Of a stretch of DNA of 49,337 bases, positions 1,920 to 46,358 are shown piece by piece (the first letter of the stretch is position 1; each line of letters begins with the position of its first letter). Both the position numbers and the translations under genes were made by a program. Origin of the DNA: Escherichia phage phiD2-2; the sequence record OR861627.1; one strand, given 5' to 3'. The notes below the pieces were generated by a model. The model searched no databases. It was not told the origin of the DNA and saw only the letters and a list, made by a program, of their open reading frames with translations.

Positions 1920-2327
1920 TCAAATTCTTCTTTCGTAAGCTGGAGCCTTGCGCACAATTCGACGTTCCGATCTATCAATGTTTCTACGTTCGCCAAACAA
2001 ATCTTCATCACTCATCTCTCCAATGTGCATCATTTCCCACGTATACCGATTGTTGTAGCCATCAATACACATCAGCTTCATCATTACCGGGCGCTTAATC
2101 TTTCCCTTGCACCAGTAAACTCCATCCTTGCGATCTAAGTAACCCTCAGTCACGCAACGAGCGCAAAACTCCTTAGATAGCGCGCTTGTAAATTCACGGC
2201 GAGTCATTCCAGCAGCCTTAGCAAATCGCTCACTTTCCTTGTGGGCGTATATAAATTTCGCTATGTGCTGTCGAGTGTATTTGTCGTAACCTTCGCAGAA
2301 TATGAACAGATCTAGAAGAAGCAGCAT
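1920..2327 (-). CDS. hypothetical protein (135 aa)
   Basis: Track ORF; start 4 nt after the stop of the upstream gene, suggesting translational coupling. Confidence 0.45.
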   Translation of the reverse strand: MLLLLDLFIFCEGYDKYTRQHIAKFIYAHKESERFAKAAGMTRREFTSALSKEFCARCVTEGYLDRKDGVYWCKGKIKRPVMMKLMCIDGYNNRYTWEMMHIGEMSDEDLFGERRNIDRSERRIVRKAPAYERRI

Positions 2328-2331
2328 ATCA

Positions 2332-3900
2332 TTAACCCATCAGCCGAGGATTAATGAAAACAATATCATCAATCCGGCAAGTGTAGTTCATCTCTTCGAG
2401 CGTGATAAGAAGACTATCGATTCGCTCAGATACTTTCTGTTGACCGTTGAAAGGCGTAACGTTCCGGCACTTTGCAACGATGCTATGAATAGGTGCGCGG
2501 CCTTTGTTTTTCTTCGCGATCTCAGTGATAACATCAATCAGCTTACGAGATTCAGCCTCATCACCAGCATACCCGGCAGCGCTGGCAGACGACAGATAAG
2601 TCCTGGAAAGCTCATTGAAGATCATGATTGCTTCCTGCATTGTTTCAAGGTCAATCTCACGGTTGGAACGGTTCGGTGATTCACCCTCCCAATTCTTGAT
2701 CGTGTGGAGAACTGAAGCAATACGCAAGGCGTGCTTATCGAACTTGCCGAGATGACCGCGTAGCATTGAGTGAGAGTATTTCCCACCTGCGGCGAAATCC
2801 GGTTCCATCGCCTGACGCGCAAGGTTTAATTCACGCATAGCATTACGGCTTACAGAGAGAACAACGTTTTCCTCCTTCATGATGTTGTGAACGAGTCTGT
2901 AATATTTGCTAACCAGTCCTCGATCGACTTCTTTATACAATGCATCACCATTTTCATCACAAAGAATACGAGTACCTAAAAGCGGTTCCTCGCGAACTAA
3001 CAGGAAGCGCTCAGATACACCGATACCTCGTTGGCCTGCGTCCATGATACCTTTGATTGTTTCATCCTGCGCAATTACGCAGATCGAGCCAACCGGGCAA
3101 AGAGACAAGTTGTTGTCCTGATTGGAGCGAGCGACCTCCATATGGTTTTTATCCCACGCCTTAAGAATAAGCTCACTGTTAGATTTCTTATCTGAACCTC
3201 CATACGTAAGACCGAGCAATGTATTGATTGCCGTTGCCTCATCAGAAATTACGGAAAAGTGGCCCTGAACAGCGGCTACTTTCGCAAGACCTTCAGGTGT
3301 AGGATCTGATACAGCAAAAACAATATCAGCCATCTTTTTGATCTTCTCTTCCAGTTTTTCTTTGTCCTCGTATAGTGCCGCAGTCGTGTTTCCTTTAGGA
3401 TCATTCTTGATTTCCTTCTCAACCTGGCGTAGCTGACTGGTTAAACGAATACGTTCCTTTTTGCGCTCTTCATTCAGTCGCTGAATCTCCGCACGCATAG
3501 GTGTAATCGCCGCTGAGTTAATCGCGGACTTACCTGTTGATGGTGGCTGGCTGATTACCATGTAAAGCGCGGTCGGCTGTTCCTCTCCGTGATATTGCAC
3601 CCAAAACTTCCCGAGCATCGCGGCTGAGATGCAACCTATAAAATGAGCATACGCGGATGAAACCGGGAACTGGACTGATTCAGCTTTTGCTTTTGCATAT
3701 TCGAATACCAGGTTATCGCCACCTAACGAAATCAGAGGGAACTTATCGTTGCCGCTATTGATATCGATCGGATCTTGCCAAAATGAAACTGAGTCACCAT
3801 AGCTGTTTTCACGAATTGCGATCGCCACCGGATTAACTCCAGTGCTATTGGCGATCTCAATAATCTGTTGGTAATTCAGTTTTGGCTTAATATTAAACAT
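2332..3900 (-). CDS. P-loop NTPase, DUF3987-like putative replication/helicase-associated protein
   Basis: Walker-A-like PPSTGKS, long coiled-coil insert, acidic VISDEAT Walker-B-like stretch; ATG (MFNIKPK) preceded by AAGGAG. Family assignment is from memory of the architecture. Confidence 0.45.
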   Translation of the reverse strand: MFNIKPKLNYQQIIEIANSTGVNPVAIAIRENSYGDSVSFWQDPIDINSGNDKFPLISLGGDNLVFEYAKAKAESVQFPVSSAYAHFIGCISAAMLGKFWVQYHGEEQPTALYMVISQPPSTGKSAINSAAITPMRAEIQRLNEERKKERIRLTSQLRQVEKEIKNDPKGNTTAALYEDKEKLEEKIKKMADIVFAVSDPTPEGLAKVAAVQGHFSVISDEATAINTLLGLTYGGSDKKSNSELILKAWDKNHMEVARSNQDNNLSLCPVGSICVIAQDETIKGIMDAGQRGIGVSERFLLVREEPLLGTRILCDENGDALYKEVDRGLVSKYYRLVHNIMKEENVVLSVSRNAMRELNLARQAMEPDFAAGGKYSHSMLRGHLGKFDKHALRIASVLHTIKNWEGESPNRSNREIDLETMQEAIMIFNELSRTYLSSASAAGYAGDEAESRKLIDVITEIAKKNKGRAPIHSIVAKCRNVTPFNGQQKVSERIDSLLITLEEMNYTCRIDDIVFINPRLMG

Positions 3901-3972
3901 CACAATAAACTCCTTGGTTGACGGTGTAAATGATACACCGCCAATGGTACACGCGTTTTGCAAAAAGTGCTA
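3901..3972 (-). promoter_or_regulatory. gene-boundary cassette upstream of the DUF3987-like gene
   Basis: TAGCACTTTTTGCAAAAC, hairpin CGGTGTA/TACACCG around TATCAT, CCAAGGAG leader. Confidence 0.5.
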
Positions 3973-3976
3973 TTGG

Positions 3977-4393
3977 TTATAAGTATTTGGCCTCAAAGGT
4001 TGTGCCGTCAGCTATGCTAAAACCGATCTCTTCGCGAAACAATGTCCAACGGCAACCATCCTCATCAAAAATATAACCAGCTACGCCGCCGAGAGCGCGA
4101 CCGCTTTCCACCTGGTAACGCTTGCCAAGTTTGAATGATTTTTTCATCGGATTACGATGGTCAAGCCCGGTGCACTTGAGCGTCTTTGTTTTCAACTCAG
4201 CGAACTTCGCGAAGAAGATTTCATCAGATCCGTGAATCTGTAATTCATCATGCTTTTCAAGTTTTAAATACTTTCCGCATTTTAATTTTACTTCGCGAGT
4301 GCCATCATAGCGCTCACGACCTTTGTACAGGTTGTTTACTTCAAATCCTGTGATTTTATCTGCGGAAGTACATTTAAGTTTGATGGATTTCAT
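3977..4393 (-). CDS. hypothetical protein (138 aa)
   Basis: Track ORF preceded by conserved leader CCAATCAGGAG and a boundary cassette. Confidence 0.6.
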   Translation of the reverse strand: MKSIKLKCTSADKITGFEVNNLYKGRERYDGTREVKLKCGKYLKLEKHDELQIHGSDEIFFAKFAELKTKTLKCTGLDHRNPMKKSFKLGKRYQVESGRALGGVAGYIFDEDGCRWTLFREEIGFSIADGTTFEAKYL

Positions 4394-5131: not shown

Positions 5132-5452
5132 TCATTTTTTACCGTCCCAGGTTTGATACGCCGTCACAAGGTTAATGCTATGGTCAAACTCGTCAATGCT
5201 AAGCGAACCTATTCGAACCAGTTCTTTATCATGCTTAATATCAATCATCCGGCTATATGGATGACCTGGCACGTATTTGAACAGTCGCTTGCTGTCAGCA
5301 ATGTCGGCGTTGATTCCATAGAATCGGCCTACTGCCGCCTTCACGCGCTCCATGATGTTTTTTTCGTGGATTGCTGCCGCGTTATTAAGCGCCGCAACCG
5401 TGCTTCCGTTAATCTTCGGTGACTTCGTTGTGATTTTATAAGTGTGGTTCAT
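5132..5452 (-). CDS. hypothetical protein (about 107 aa)
   Basis: Track ORF trimmed to internal ATG (MNHTYK) with GGGGGA RBS, which removes the overlap with the upstream gene. Confidence 0.5.
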   Translation of the reverse strand: MNHTYKITTKSPKINGSTVAALNNAAAIHEKNIMERVKAAVGRFYGINADIADSKRLFKYVPGHPYSRMIDIKHDKELVRIGSLSIDEFDHSINLVTAYQTWDGKK

Positions 5453-5468
5453 TATTCCCCCTAACCAG

Positions 5469-5669
5469 TCAGGATAGCTTTCTCGCTTCATCAATGATAA
5501 CAGGTTCAAGACGCTCAAGTCTAACGCGGAACGTGTTCATAAATCCTTCGTTATTCTTCAGTAGCTCGAATGCGTCTGTTGCCTCAATTGCGCTATTTCC
5601 CATGTAGGCAACTACGCTCTTTTGCGTCCTGCGTGAGATCGCAACCACGCGGTAAATATTATCACTCAT
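5469..5669 (-). CDS. hypothetical protein (about 66 aa)
   Basis: Track ORF trimmed to ATG (MSDNIYRV) with GGAGG 6 nt upstream; ATGAGTGA overlap with upstream stop. Confidence 0.5.
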   Translation of the reverse strand: MSDNIYRVVAISRRTQKSVVAYMGNSAIEATDAFELLKNNEGFMNTFRVRLERLEPVIIDEARKLS

Positions 5670-7615: not shown

Positions 7616-7690
7616 ATGATGAAATGTGATTGTTGCATGATGTGCAACTGTTGATGTGATTGTTGCTTGGAATGCAATGATTGTGAGAGG
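7616..7690. repeat. tandem operator-like units (GTGATTGTTGC with TTGCA-N5-TGCAA inverted repeat)
   Basis: Two about 30-bp units; first contains perfect TTGCATGATGTGCAA. Confidence 0.5.
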
Positions 7691-7733
7691 GAGGATCTAG
7701 TGTTACCCGGTTCGTCTGGTAGTCATCTCCATT

Positions 7734-7753
7734 TTTAGCAAAAAGTGCTATCG
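7734..7753. repeat. boundary palindrome copy at the edge of the AT-rich hub
   Basis: TTTTAGCAAAAAGTGCTATC. Confidence 0.5.
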
Positions 7754-8154
7754 ATTACACTTTACCTTGTCACGGATGTAATATTTGTCTAGAATCGCAC
7801 TTGTGACAAAATTACACACTGTGACGCCTCTAAATATACATATAGATATATGTATCTATATAATATATATAGTGTTTTTTTTATTTATATATATAGATAA
7901 TTATATTGTAATAGTTGTGTATAGTTGTCTTACATTGTCTAGCGTACTGTTGGCATATTTCTATCTGCATGTTTATATATACAGTACTTTTTTGAGAGCT
8001 ATATATTTCTATAGTGACTCTAGACAGCTAGACAAATGTTACACGGCTTAAAATTGGCTCGCAGGCATTGACAGCTCTACATCGCAATGTCACAATGGCA
8101 ATTGTTGGCACATTATGACACCATTTACACACGAATAGACAAAGAGGGTATATT
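7754..8154. promoter_or_regulatory. AT-rich divergent control hub 1 with GTGTAA/TGTCTA-type repeats
   Basis: Alternating TA tract (7840-7910), TTGTCAC/GTGACA repeats, GTGTAACATTTGTCTAG in reverse orientation near 8027-8046, TTGACA near 8069. Confidence 0.5.
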
Positions 8155-15978: not shown

Positions 15979-16143
15979 ATGATGCAAAACACCAAAGACG
16001 AATCAGTAAAAATTGAAATTAAAGTAACTCGCAACGGTGAAACCACTCGTTATAAAAAACGATTAAATCCGGGAGAGGCTGTTATTGGTCGAATTGCTGG
16101 CGTTATGATTAAGGCGCAGGAAGATGAAGCGATTCAAGGTTAA
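15979..16143 (+). CDS. hypothetical small protein (54 aa)
   Basis: Hand-translated; AAGAGGA 6 nt upstream of ATG; follows a structured leader. Confidence 0.4.
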   Translation: MMQNTKDESVKIEIKVTRNGETTRYKKRLNPGEAVIGRIAGVMIKAQEDEAIQG

Positions 16144-16309
16144 ATTAATTATTCGAAAGATGGGGATGTTTTGCCAGTCGTGCAAACAATCTTTCGAAAC
16201 AGAATTATCTGCAACCAGTCAGGCAGAAGCCATCACGAAAGCAAAAAAACTTTCCGGCGCTAACCTTGACACTCACAAAATAAATATTGAATTAATCAAG
16301 GAGATTTAA
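16124..16309 (+). CDS. hypothetical small Cys-containing protein (CQSCKQ); start uncertain
   Basis: Track ORF overlapping the previous gene; poor RBS at listed start, internal starts possible. Confidence 0.3.
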   Translation: MKRFKVKLIIRKMGMFCQSCKQSFETELSATSQAEAITKAKKLSGANLDTHKINIELIKEI

Positions 16310-16310
16310 C

Positions 16311-16538
16311 ATGACAATTTTTTTATTGATTATCGCTGGTGTCATTATTTTTGGTGCTGGTTTGTTTGCTGGCTTCGCACTTGTGGCGGCAGCAATTGCG
16401 ATGGACGCGAAGGATAAAACTGGTGTATGGCTGACCTACTCACCTAAGAAGGACCAATGGGAGATGACTGGCGACCTTGCTCACTGCTACTCTAAAGCTC
16501 AGACCCACCCTAAAGGAATTAAGCGACTATTGTCGTGA
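16311..16538 (+). CDS. small membrane protein (75 aa)
   Basis: AAGGAG RBS; N-terminal TM helix IFLLIIAGVIIFGAGLFAGFALVAAAIAM; followed by a terminator. Confidence 0.5.
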   Translation: MTIFLLIIAGVIIFGAGLFAGFALVAAAIAMDAKDKTGVWLTYSPKKDQWEMTGDLAHCYSKAQTHPKGIKRLLS

Positions 16539-16546
16539 TAAACACT

Positions 16547-16571
16547 AACCCGCTTCGGCGGGTTTTTTTAT
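16547..16571 (+). terminator. rho-independent terminator ahead of the packaging genes
   Basis: Stem CCCGC/GCGGG with TTCG loop then T7. Confidence 0.7.
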
Positions 16572-16622
16572 GCCTGCAATATGGTAAAATAGCACTAAAT
16601 GTTAAACAAAGAGGATGGATTT
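16572..16622 (+). promoter_or_regulatory. extended -10 (TGgTAAAAT) plus palindrome in the TerS leader
   Basis: After terminator: TGGTAAAAT then TAGCACTAAATGTTAAAC then AAGAGGA RBS. Confidence 0.45.
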
Positions 16623-17147
16623 ATGAGTGAACATAAAAACGCTCCCGTTGTTCAGGGAGGTAATTTCAAAGAGCTATACAAGAAAAAGTTCGGCACTGTT
16701 CTTGCTAAGAATCGGGCAATGACGCCTGAGCAACTATTCGATCTGTCAGTTAAGTATTTCGAATGGGCTGAAGACAATGCGATCAAGGCTTCTGAGTCTG
16801 CCAGCTTTCAGGGTGGCGTTTATGAATCGCTAGTTCATAAGCCGCGCGTCTTCACCTGGACCGGATACCGACTATTCATCGGTGCAAGCGAGGCCGCAAT
16901 CATTAAGTGGAAGCGAGAGGAAGAATACAGTGAGGTTATGGAGTTTGTGGAATCGGTAATCAACGAGCAAAAATTCCAGCTTGCCGCCAACGGTGTTATT
17001 AACGCCTCATTTATCGGTAAGGATCTCGGAATCGACAAGCCAGCCTCAATCAATATCGAAAACTCGTCAGCTTCCGCATCGACCGCTGTCGCCACTACTG
17101 AGGACGCAATGAAAGAGGCTGTAAACAGTATTCTTGACATGCTTTAA
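16623..17147 (+). CDS. terminase small subunit (putative)
   Basis: About 174 aa gene directly upstream of the large terminase; internal ATG with AAGAGGA RBS preferred over track start 16599. Call by position and size only. Confidence 0.5.
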   Translation: MSEHKNAPVVQGGNFKELYKKKFGTVLAKNRAMTPEQLFDLSVKYFEWAEDNAIKASESASFQGGVYESLVHKPRVFTWTGYRLFIGASEAAIIKWKREEEYSEVMEFVESVINEQKFQLAANGVINASFIGKDLGIDKPASINIENSSASASTAVATTEDAMKEAVNSILDML

Positions 17148-42383: not shown

Positions 42384-43319
42384 TTATAGTAGATCACTTG
42401 CTGAGAATAACTTAGCTTGCATTCCTGAGCGGTATCCTCCCTGATTCGGGATGATTATTTTTAATTGTCTGTCGTCTGCCATGTATAAAGTTTCTTTATC
42501 AGATGGTTCGCACGCCACCCTTACCTCCCGATCTCCCTTGTATCTGTACGCAACCATTTCTAGATTTTCAGGAGTGAAGCAGGCCCATACCTCTTGCTTT
42601 GTGTGAAATGCAATATGCTGAGCATCAATCCAATTAAGGCATAAGTAGATCGCTTTTTCAGTTTTACCAGTCACGGCAACCGAGCAACTTGTGTATTTCT
42701 TTGCATAAAATGACTCCCTACCCTCCTCATCAATAATCAAAATATTGCAAAACTCTTCATCAAGACCGTCCTCGTGTACAAGTTGACATGGTATGGTGTG
42801 AAATACACTCTCGCCGCCATCCTCTCGACGTTTTACGCCAACGTCGAATGATTCAGTAGGTAGCGACTCAAACATGCTTAGAGGTGTGTTTATGCGCTTC
42901 TCTGTGCGCTCCATAACTTTCATCACTGCCTCGTGTTCTGCCATCATAACATTGACGCCAGCTACCGGAGTTCTTCGCGCTTTTTTGTTGGCCTTGACAA
43001 TGTATTCCTGCGGAACCTTGCCGAGAAATCTTCCCAGGATATTTATACATTCGCTGTACGGCATACCAGTTAATTTAATCAACCAACCGACTCCAGAGTC
43101 GTTACCGCATGAGTTGCAGATCGCACCGCCGTCGCCCGGAGTGTTAAGGTTATCAGTCCAGCGAAAGCGGTCCTTACCCCCGCAGTTAGGGCAAGGTTGG
43201 TGTTTCTTATTAAAAACATCATTCGGCAATCCGCAGATTGATTGGAAAGCCTCGCGCCATAACCCCTTCATGTACGGCAAAACGTCCTCTTTCTGAAACA
43301 TCATAAATTCTTCGTTCAC
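42384..43319 (-). CDS. DNA primase (zinc-ribbon + TOPRIM-like)
   Basis: N-terminal CPNCGGKDRFRW...CNSCG zinc ribbon, acidic C-terminal half; followed by a leftward terminator. Confidence 0.6.
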   Translation of the reverse strand: MNEEFMMFQKEDVLPYMKGLWREAFQSICGLPNDVFNKKHQPCPNCGGKDRFRWTDNLNTPGDGGAICNSCGNDSGVGWLIKLTGMPYSECINILGRFLGKVPQEYIVKANKKARRTPVAGVNVMMAEHEAVMKVMERTEKRINTPLSMFESLPTESFDVGVKRREDGGESVFHTIPCQLVHEDGLDEEFCNILIIDEEGRESFYAKKYTSCSVAVTGKTEKAIYLCLNWIDAQHIAFHTKQEVWACFTPENLEMVAYRYKGDREVRVACEPSDKETLYMADDRQLKIIIPNQGGYRSGMQAKLFSASDLL

Positions 43320-43932: not shown

Positions 43933-45945
43933 ATGAACATTAAAAAGCAGATTGCATTACTTGGCGAGGACTATATAAAGCGAACTCAGGAGCGATTCAC
44001 TGTCGGTGAGGTTGTTCCTTATCCGTACCAGGTTGTTGCTTATGCTGAGATCGCGAAACGCCTATCAAATTACGAGCATCCATTCTTTGTTAAAGCGTCA
44101 GTATCTGCTGGTAAGACCATCATTTTTGCTATGGTTGCAAAGCAGTGTCAGAAAATGGGCTTAAAAATGCTCGTTCTGGCTCGCCAGGGTGAGATTGTCG
44201 ATCAGGATAGCGAGGAGATTGACAACTTTGGGGTAACTAACTCCATATTCTCAGCCTCATTAGGTATTAAGTCCTGCTATTTTCCTATCGTGGTAGGCTC
44301 AGAGGGTACTGTTGCAAATGGCCTCGACAATGAGCTTGCTGATTTCGTCCCGCATGTAATTGGGATCGACGAATGTCACCAGGTGGATTGGGAAGACCTT
44401 GCGCAAGCCATTGAGGGCAAGGAAACAATGGAACAAATGAGGGGCGAGAAGGGAAAAATCATCATGGATGGAGATATTCCCCTGATTGGTAATGATGGAA
44501 AACCTTTGCTTGGGACTAAGCGCAGTCAGTACACAATCGTAATCATGGAAATGATGCGGCGCTGTAAAAAGGTTCACGGTCACGATCTCAGAATATTTGG
44601 TATGACTGGATCTGAATTTCGTGGCGTAGTTCCTATTCTGGTAGAGAATCCGAAAGCATTGGGATTCTGGCGTGAGCGAGTAACTGATATCGACACAAAC
44701 TATCTGATTGAGTTCGGTTCTGTTGTGCCGACAATATTCGGTTCAACAGACGGAGTTCATTACGATCTGGATAAGTTCAAGGCGTCGAGCGAGGACGGAG
44801 TGCAGGACTTTACAGAGAAAGACATGAAGGCTATGGAAGATGAGATCCTTCATGATAAATCTCTTACTCAGCGAATCATGCAAATGGTTGCCAAAAAGGC
44901 TGAAGAGCGTAACGCGGTACTGATTACATGTGCTGGTGTGCGCCACTGCAAAGAGGCAGCGGCAGCACTTCCTCCGGGAAGCACCTATGCAATTATTACT
45001 GGCGACACAGACAACAAAACGCGCAAGAAGATTCTGGACGATGTAAGGGCCGGAAAAATTAAATACACCTTTCAGGTAATGGCGCTCACTACTGGTGTTA
45101 ACGTTCCAAATTGGGATTTCAGTGTCATACTCCGCAAAATAGGGTCGCTCACACTGTTGATTCAACTTTTGGGTAGGGGTATGCGTCTGCTTAAATCCTG
45201 GCAGGTTGCTGAGGGAATGGTTAAGCAGGACCATCTGGTATGGGATTTCGCAGGTACGATGGATGAGTTGGGCCAGCTTTATTTCGATCCGATACTTGAG
45301 CAGGCGCAATTCCAAAAGCGTTTTGAAAACGGCAAAGATCCGAAAACATGTCCGAAATGCGGTTGCGTAAATAGCTTCTATGCTCGACGATGCGTTAATG
45401 TCATTGATGGTGAACGTTGTGATCATTTCTGGACTTCTCAGGTTTGTGAGGACCAGGTTGACGAGCGCACCGGAAAAATCCTTGTTAAAGGATGCGGCGC
45501 AGAGAATGACGTTGTGGCCAGAGTCTGTCGTTGCTGTGATGTTTCGCTTGTCGATCCTAACCTGAAGTTATCCGGTAAGGCGTACACTAAGAATGACTGG
45601 TATGAAGTAAAGAATTTTGAGGTTACGCTAACCAAAAACCAGAAAGGCATAATATACAAATACACTCTTATTAACGATGATGGTGATGAGTTCAAGGCGT
45701 ATGAAAAATTCTTCCCCGAGTCTGACTCTAAGATTTGCGGTACGCTATGGAAAACTAAAGGTGTATTGCCACACGTATCGGATCCTAAAATGCGCCGATA
45801 CTTTATCGGAATGAAGAACGCCATCAAGATTTTGCAATACTCACATCATATTGCTCACCCGGTGCGCGTAACTCATCGTCGCAACCAGAAGAAAGAAGAT
45901 ATTATCTCACGAAAAGACTTTGGTATGGAGGATATCCCGGAATGA
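43933..45945 (+). CDS. ATP-dependent helicase (SF2, DExH-type)
   Basis: Walker A SVSAGKTIIF, DECH box, C-terminal Cys cluster; track start 43927 is an upstream GTG. Confidence 0.8.
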   Translation: MNIKKQIALLGEDYIKRTQERFTVGEVVPYPYQVVAYAEIAKRLSNYEHPFFVKASVSAGKTIIFAMVAKQCQKMGLKMLVLARQGEIVDQDSEEIDNFGVTNSIFSASLGIKSCYFPIVVGSEGTVANGLDNELADFVPHVIGIDECHQVDWEDLAQAIEGKETMEQMRGEKGKIIMDGDIPLIGNDGKPLLGTKRSQYTIVIMEMMRRCKKVHGHDLRIFGMTGSEFRGVVPILVENPKALGFWRERVTDIDTNYLIEFGSVVPTIFGSTDGVHYDLDKFKASSEDGVQDFTEKDMKAMEDEILHDKSLTQRIMQMVAKKAEERNAVLITCAGVRHCKEAAAALPPGSTYAIITGDTDNKTRKKILDDVRAGKIKYTFQVMALTTGVNVPNWDFSVILRKIGSLTLLIQLLGRGMRLLKSWQVAEGMVKQDHLVWDFAGTMDELGQLYFDPILEQAQFQKRFENGKDPKTCPKCGCVNSFYARRCVNVIDGERCDHFWTSQVCEDQVDERTGKILVKGCGAENDVVARVCRCCDVSLVDPNLKLSGKAYTKNDWYEVKNFEVTLTKNQKGIIYKYTLINDDGDEFKAYEKFFPESDSKICGTLWKTKGVLPHVSDPKMRRYFIGMKNAIKILQYSHHIAHPVRVTHRRNQKKEDIISRKDFGMEDIPE

Positions 45946-46358
45946 TTACAGACAAAGGTGATTATTTAGAATTTTACGAGAGAGATCCAAGCGACACTCG
46001 AAAGGAGGACGCTCATCAGGTGGATTGTGTATCCTGGCTGAAATACAATTTTCCTCACCTTCTATTTTGGCACACTGTCAATGAAGGTGAAAAAACAATC
46101 ACATCGGCGCTCAGGGATGAGCAGGCCGGATTACTTAAAGGCGTGTCAGACTTCGTTATCCTGATTGGTGTTAACTCACGATACCCGTTTGCAGCAATCG
46201 AACTTAAGCGGGTTAATAAGTCAGGCAAAGGAAAGGCGTCACCAGTCAGCGACAAGCAAAGGGAATTTCTCCAAAAGGTCCGGGAGCGTGGCGGCTTCTC
46301 TGCCGTCGCATACGGATTCGGGCAATTCAAGATCGCAATTTACGAAATGATGAAATAG
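45942..46358 (+). CDS. VRR-NUC domain nuclease
   Basis: GVSDFVIL...AAIELKR...SDKQREFL spacing fits the VRR-NUC core; overlaps helicase stop. Confidence 0.6.
   Translation: MITDKGDYLEFYERDPSDTRKEDAHQVDCVSWLKYNFPHLLFWHTVNEGEKTITSALRDEQAGLLKGVSDFVILIGVNSRYPFAAIELKRVNKSGKGKASPVSDKQREFLQKVRERGGFSAVAYGFGQFKIAIYEMMK

Follow-up and report, generated by a model that had tools for sequence, protein, structure and literature searches.

A DUF3987 ATPase of T1-like Escherichia phages, distantly related to MCM, is the probable replicative helicase

What is the function of the 522-residue P-loop protein encoded in the leftward gene run of Escherichia phage phiD2-2? We analyzed its gene within a DNA stretch of 49,337 nucleotides (sequence record OR861627.1), referred to below as the window. 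A preliminary description had noted a DUF3987-like protein encoded apart from a primase and an SF2 helicase, and had named a helicase loader, an iteron-binding initiator, or something unrelated as its possible roles. Family membership, predicted fold, conservation of catalytic residues, and linkage to primases in relatives lead us to consider it likely that the protein is the replicative helicase that unwinds the phage fork. The earlier list was right in pointing to replication, but it omitted the helicase itself, which is the best-supported role.

The assignment to DUF3987 held. The protein matched the Pfam model DUF3987 (PF13148) with 145.7 bits (E = 2.7e-42), far above the cut-off of 27, with residues 78–432 aligned to positions 2–355 of the 364-position model; the same match was obtained for all 28 aligned homologues. 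At E ≤ 0.001, a profile search recovered 5862 of 1.84 billion cluster representatives as family members, and tblastn detected homologues in 923 phage records. When the Pfam search was relaxed to E ≤ 10, DUF3987 was the sole family matched by the 28 homologues, with no match to MCM (PF00493). The protein had no DnaB match in Pfam and no match in NCBIfam. Searches of PDB sequences with the single protein or with the 28-sequence profile gave chance matches only. PADLOC returned just a 14-bit match to LmuB, which we treated as noise and which therefore does not indicate membership in a defense system; a role as a defense or other non-replicative ATPase receives no support from PADLOC. A profile match to a non-replicative ATPase family, named in the preliminary description as evidence against its view, was found in none of the relaxed Pfam, NCBIfam, and PADLOC searches.

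DUF3987 proteins have been discussed before. Kazlauskas, Krupovic, and Venclovas (2016) tied the family to MCM by HHsearch, described a winged helix-turn-helix at its C-terminal end, noted its association with archaeo-eukaryotic or DnaG primases, and proposed that its members are phage replicative (superfamily 6) helicases (PMC4889955). In a 2018 survey, DUF3987 again turned up in primase fusions at the position otherwise taken by known helicase domains (PMC5862659). In 2025, a PriCT-DUF3987 protein, AgaPH of Seonamhaeicola, was purified and found to unwind 5′-tailed as well as forked DNA; the activity on 5′-tailed substrates implies 5′→3′ polarity, unwinding requires the Walker A and B residues, and the protein binds its cognate primase-polymerase (PMC11724360). 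The phiD2-2 protein shares with AgaPH and with the helicase part of phage N4 dns a full-length match to the same Pfam model, variants of the Walker A and B motifs, a C-terminal winged helix, and primase-linked relatives. The gene is the T1-family copy of this known class, which is distantly related to the archaeal and eukaryotic MCM helicase, and it is already annotated as a helicase gene.

Structure prediction, which had been suggested as a check, yielded a confident AlphaFold (AF2) model (pLDDT 89, pTM 0.87) with an MCM-like fold. The structures closest to its AAA+ core are those of MCM, which score far above ComM, and its structural neighbors are AAA+ rather than RecA-fold proteins. Both catalytic signatures of DUF3987 are present, the Walker A lysine in QPPSTGKS and the Walker B glutamate in VISDE. 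The Walker A motif, read earlier as PPSTGKS, is invariant among the 28 homologues, and K124 is kept in all 259 family members aligned; E221 is kept in 263 of 263 and R298, within the sequence SERF, in 262 of 263. SERF stands at the beginning of strand beta-5, where the SRF-type arginine finger of MCM and other superfamily 6 enzymes lies, and R298 is, judged from what is established for the SRF motif of MCM, a candidate trans-acting arginine finger. In the model, the beta-hairpin preceding strand beta-4 (strands 254–256 and 265–267, with invariant R258 between them) is a candidate pre-sensor-1 beta-hairpin, which may serve as a DNA-contacting pore loop. Invariant residues of the helical lid (R381, G382, G385, K386, and D388) are candidates for sensor 2.

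The long coiled-coil insert described earlier corresponds in the model to a lengthened Walker A helix, which runs for 45 residues (122–166), and a return helix (173–189), both at pLDDT of about 80–95. The insert (residues 126–189) is basic, with 17 lysines and arginines against 12 aspartates and glutamates (pI 9.7). The Walker A lysine and Walker B glutamate are separated by about 58 residues in canonical AAA+ and MCM proteins and by 96 in the phage protein. Among 258 family members, this interval can be as short as 53 residues or as long as 105, so hairpin length varies within the family and the feature is no peculiarity of the phage. On either side of the ATPase lie an acidic N-terminal helical domain, possibly a partner-binding collar, and a basic C-terminal winged helix, which in structure comparisons matches the winged helices of ORC, Cdc6, and Stn1. 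The winged helix and the basic hairpin probably serve to dock DNA or partners.

Relatives of the protein are linked to primases both by fusion and by gene order. In one (P0159), a DnaG-type CHC2 zinc ribbon is fused to the N terminus of an entire T1-type protein; elsewhere the N-terminal fusion partner is a BT4734 archaeo-eukaryotic primase (P0245), an NrS-1 polymerase domain (P0259), or the N-terminal domain of DnaB (P0185), which takes the place of the first ~60 residues of the N-terminal region. In two phage contigs (L002 and L004) encoding homologues of 35–37% identity, the DUF3987 gene lies 1–2 genes from a primase gene of the kind present in phiD2-2, and genes for an SF2 helicase, a 131–138-residue protein, an exonuclease, and SSB then occur, with ERF as well in L002. 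Based on these neighborhoods, we regard the DUF3987, primase, and SF2 helicase genes as one conserved replication/recombination module, which is split by rearrangement in T1-like genomes.

The locations proposed for the other two enzymes of this module, both away from the DUF3987 gene, were borne out by profile matches. The primase was identified by Zn_Ribbon_Prim and PHROG 510. It folds like the primase half of T7 gp4 and of mitochondrial Twinkle, the helicase half being missing, and the phage is therefore predicted to have the same two activities as gp4 and Twinkle. In those proteins, however, the helicase is a fused RecA-fold SF4 (DnaB-like) domain, while in the phage it would be a separate AAA+ protein of unrelated fold. 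In the Toprim-like strand of the primase (residues ~226–232), most homologues have C.DW.DAQH and the window primase has LCLNWIDAQH, with asparagine for the first aspartate; a distant homologue in L002 (VSNYFDA) has asparagine at this position too. The canonical Toprim glutamate is not obvious in this family of predicted primases, though the fold matches T7 and DnaG primases.

The SF2 helicase, with ResIII and Helicase_C matches, is the only other helicase in the phage. It resembles RadD (YejH), matching PDB 6jde with E = 6.5e-42 and the NCBIfam RadD model with E = 2e-59, which is below the equivalog cut-off, and its gene overlaps by 4 nt that of a VRR-NUC nuclease. The RadD-like profile and the adjoining nuclease gene suggest that the two proteins likely form a repair/recombination (fork-repair) module and that the SF2 enzyme is not the fork helicase. 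The annotations of the SH2 and T1 records (Escherichia phage vB_EcoS_SH2, a close relative described below, and phage T1) include no polymerase, DnaB, loader, or initiator. A 2024 re-annotation paper on phage TLS also describes T1 and TLS as being without a polymerase, and its list of replication proteins is confined to the primase and the SF2 helicase; hence the DUF3987 gene appears to have been largely overlooked in the T1 literature.

The mechanism we propose is as follows. The protein would be an AAA+ ATPase of the MCM-like (superfamily 6) branch, assembling into a ring with ATP bound at the subunit interfaces, where K124 and E221 would come from one subunit and R298 from its neighbor. Such a ring would translocate on single-stranded DNA through its pore hairpins and unwind the replication fork. 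Priming would fall to the T7 gp4-type primase, a product of its own gene whose helicase half was either lost or never present, and DNA would presumably be synthesized by host DNA polymerase III (Pol III), since the phage is without a polymerase. Helicase activity and 5′→3′ polarity are predicted by analogy with AgaPH.

Several points weigh against this reading. The helicase activity of T1-family proteins is predicted from a single characterized relative, AgaPH, which differs from the phage protein. The phage protein is without a fused PriCT or primase domain, and in T1-like genomes its gene is not adjacent to that of the presumed primase, which lies on the same replicon ~10 kb away round the permuted map. 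AgaPH pairs with an archaeo-eukaryotic primase, the phage protein presumably with one of bacterial DnaG/T7 type. Identity to MCM proteins (archaeal MCM, MCM2-7, and MCM8/9) is just about 12%, and because sequence profiles reach neither MCM nor any solved structure, the MCM link rests on the predicted structure and on the published HHsearch result. Compared with MCM, the model has an extra helical hairpin after Walker A, has no evident helix-2 insert (helix 202–212 is uninterrupted), and has a 95-residue helical domain where MCM carries its N-terminal OB-fold/zinc tier; moreover, AgaPH and MCM move in opposite directions. Since there is no PF00493 match, no match among PDB sequences, and a helical N terminus in place of the OB/zinc tier, we do not file the protein under MCM: it is a DUF3987 member and MCM-like, but not a member of the MCM family. 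The Walker B aspartate is itself variable, position 220 being D in 162 members, A in 64, and S in 30, so that about 36% of family representatives have alanine or serine. Among related AAA+ rings, ComM and RuvB, for example, work in recombination rather than replication. Finally, a literature search on the need of T1 for host dna genes gave nothing relevant. Two other known systems are more distant than MCM: SCCmec Cch (DUF927) and the SaPI5 primase-helicase belong to other Pfam families, have other N-terminal domains, and match the model much more weakly in structure.

The alternative that survives best is compatible with a replicative helicase and extends it. The protein could be an initiator-helicase, which besides unwinding DNA would recognize the origin through its winged helix and load itself, as do P4 alpha, SaPI Rep, and viral SF3 initiators. 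The winged helix makes a role in origin recognition possible, its basic character and its likeness to those of ORC/Cdc6 favor the idea, and the lack of an annotated initiator or loader is in line with it. Candidate sites are of two kinds. The first is the hub (7700–8050) between the leftward and rightward gene runs. GC content falls to its regional minimum there (25–30%), and this AT-rich hub is a plausible unwinding element; it also carries short repeats. It contains a (TA)n-rich stretch (7834–7906) and repeated TGTCTAGA/CTAGACA and TGTGACA/TGTCACA boxes; a 24-nt direct repeat, ATGTGATTGTTGC..., occurs at 7624 and 7654. However, divergent promoter-like sites are present in the hub too, and the ends of the SH2 record map to about this place. 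The hub may serve as an origin or unwinding element, may be a cluster of operators and promoters, or may be related to pac.

The second candidate is a dispersed 21-nt repeat, one copy of which lies directly 5′ of the DUF3987 gene. In the window we counted 15 copies of the motif ATAGCACTTTTTGY(TAAA), against 1.05 expected. Copies are nearly always intergenic and oriented like the downstream gene, and downstream of each come a hairpin whose sequence varies and, at about 22–24 nt, a −10-like hexamer. This distance is wrong for a standard sigma-70 −35 box, and we rejected that identification. The motif matches the published 21-nt T1/TLS repeat aaATAGCACnnnTTGnTAAAA, for which a stoperator, an enhancer, or an UP-like element has been considered (PMC11447400). 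Given its dispersed, promoter-proximal distribution, we also rejected an iteron role for the ATAGCAC...TAAAA repeat: this T1-family repeat is already published, and its position 5′ of genes, co-oriented with transcription, is better explained by a transcriptional element than by an origin. We found no iterons and no origin beside or within the DUF3987 gene. In addition, winged-helix domains of MCM proteins often bind proteins instead of specific DNA. On balance, we view the initiator-helicase as a tentative extension that is less likely to be right than wrong.

Combining the replicative helicase with self-loading gives a more elaborate scheme. An MCM-fold ring would move along the lagging-strand template in the 5′→3′ direction, having loaded itself at the origin via the winged helix, and its hairpin and N-terminal collar would dock the stand-alone T7-type primase and the clamp loader of host Pol III. 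The result would be a hybrid replisome with a motor of archaeo-eukaryotic type and bacterial priming and polymerization, in which DnaB and DnaC would be dispensable. We offer this scheme as a speculation that, taken whole, is rather unlikely.

Could the protein instead be a recombination or repair motor, driving branch migration or fork remodeling like ComM or RuvB during the recombination-dependent formation of T1 concatemers, while host DnaB unwinds the fork? We consider this improbable, because the structural match to MCM is far stronger than that to ComM and because the recurrent fusion partners are primases and the DnaB N-terminal domain, not recombinases. Furthermore, the RadD-like helicase and the VRR-NUC nuclease are already available for such work, and the characterized relative, AgaPH, pairs with a primase-polymerase. 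A loader or host-takeover ATPase that loads or hijacks host DnaB, like lambda P or DnaC, and does no unwinding itself, would suit a phage that relies on the host polymerase and in which no loader has been identified, but this option from the preliminary description is very improbable, because the ATPase core is MCM-like, not DnaC- or ORC/Cdc6-like, and the initiator/loader clade (DnaA/DnaC, ORC/Cdc6) matches through the winged helix only (75–99 aligned residues), while the full ring-ATPase catalytic set including the trans-arginine is conserved, AgaPH has helicase activity, and the DnaB_N-DUF3987 fusion suggests that the DnaB motor was replaced rather than loaded.

The positions of the gene, of the domains and motifs of its product, and of the other features discussed are collected in Table 1. 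The longest open reading frame at the locus, 2332..3963 on the minus strand, begins with TTG and would specify 543 residues. The ATG at 3900 gives 522 residues plus a stop codon (58.1 kDa), and this start is supported by the AAGGAG box, by the invariance of M1 in the 28 aligned homologues, and by the RefSeq coding sequence of SH2. Over the 1.6-kb gene region, identity is 100% to SH2, 99.9% to phage FCWL1, and 93–98% to ~55 other Tunavirus (T1-like, Drexlerviridae) genomes. Relative to the SH2 record, the window is circularly permuted, and the coding sequence is 100% identical to one labeled "DNA helicase" in SH2; RefSeq and PHROG 2373 (E = 4e-234) had both already given the gene this label. 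The T1 counterpart, ST9, is also 522 residues long. The gene lies in a leftward, presumably early operon, as described earlier: a run of co-oriented minus-strand genes extends from ~7470 down to ~1515, where it ends at a bidirectional hairpin (1485–1515).

Table 1. Positions in the window of the DUF3987 gene, its domains and motifs, and related features
Feature	Position	Strand	Remarks
DUF3987 protein, coding sequence	2332..3900	−	522 residues; stop codon 2332-2334; SH2 gp69, T1 ST9
Shine-Dalgarno box AAGGAG	3915-3910	−	9 nt 5′ of the ATG; direct sequence reading
N-terminal helical domain	3616..3900	−	residues 1-95; acidic, pI 4.8; AF2 secondary structure
AAA+ ATPase core, MCM-like	2926..3615	−	residues 96-325
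Walker A QPPSTGKS	3526..3549	−	residues 118-125; invariant in 28 homologues
Basic helical hairpin	3334..3525	−	residues 126-189; Walker A helix extension and return helix
Walker B strand FSVISDE	3238..3258	−	residues 215-221
Beta-hairpin before beta-4	3100..3141	−	residues 254-267; strands 254-256 and 265-267 in the model; R258 invariant
SERF motif	3004..3015	−	residues 296-299; precedes strand 299-303, start of beta-5
Helical lid region	2578..2925	−	residues 326-441; alignment and model
C-terminal winged-helix domain	2335..2577	−	residues 442-522; basic, pI 8.0
Dispersed-repeat copy 5′ of the DUF3987 gene	3960..3973	−	one of 15 in the window
ATAGCACTTTTTGY(TAAA) copies	1798, 3960, 4460, 4979, 6095, 6559, 7533, 7738, 23300, 27062, 43384	−	
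ATAGCACTTTTTGY(TAAA) copies	8685, 10446, 43846, 46355	+	
Stand-alone DnaG/T7 gp4-type primase	42384..43319	−	zinc ribbon and RNA-polymerase/Toprim domain; presumed partner
RadD (YejH)-like SF2 helicase	43933..45945	+	670 residues; ResIII and Helicase_C matches
VRR-NUC nuclease	45942-46358	+	SH2 annotation; 4-nt overlap with SF2 helicase gene

Some neighboring genes deserve mention. A gene for a 135-residue protein, gp68 (1920-2327, minus strand), starts 4 nt past the stop codon of the DUF3987 gene, and the two may be translationally coupled. By eye, gp68 contains a winged-helix-like stretch; it has no Pfam match and is confined to close Tunavirus relatives (16 clusters). We rejected gp68 as a conserved partner or loader because its distribution is this narrow and because the genes that follow DUF3987 in L002 and L004 are unrelated to it. 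In phage T1 (L005), a gene for an HNH endonuclease, ST8 (16086-16625), lies directly upstream of the DUF3987 gene; it is absent from SH2 and from the corresponding stretch of the window (~3900-3977). An HNH gene is annotated under the match to the helicase region in phage Eco_BIFF as well, and the site looks like an insertion hotspot for homing endonucleases. The same leftward operon contains an open reading frame encoding 128 residues (5132-5518, minus strand). A preprint names an unnamed 128-residue protein of T1-like phage SECphi27 as a trigger of Mokosh type I defense; the feature shared with the 5132-5518 product is its length. A literature search for defense-escape mutations in the DUF3987 gene found nothing relevant.

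At the level of the gene, the answer is not new: the identical RefSeq coding sequence bears the label "DNA helicase", a replicative helicase role was predicted for the family in 2016, and DNA unwinding has been demonstrated for one of its members. For the biology of T1, the result is a corrective, in that the DUF3987 protein is a likelier fork helicase than the RadD-like SF2 enzyme. T1-like phages are abundant and genetically easy, and they would offer a convenient system in which to study an MCM-like motor working with a bacterial-type primase and host Pol III.
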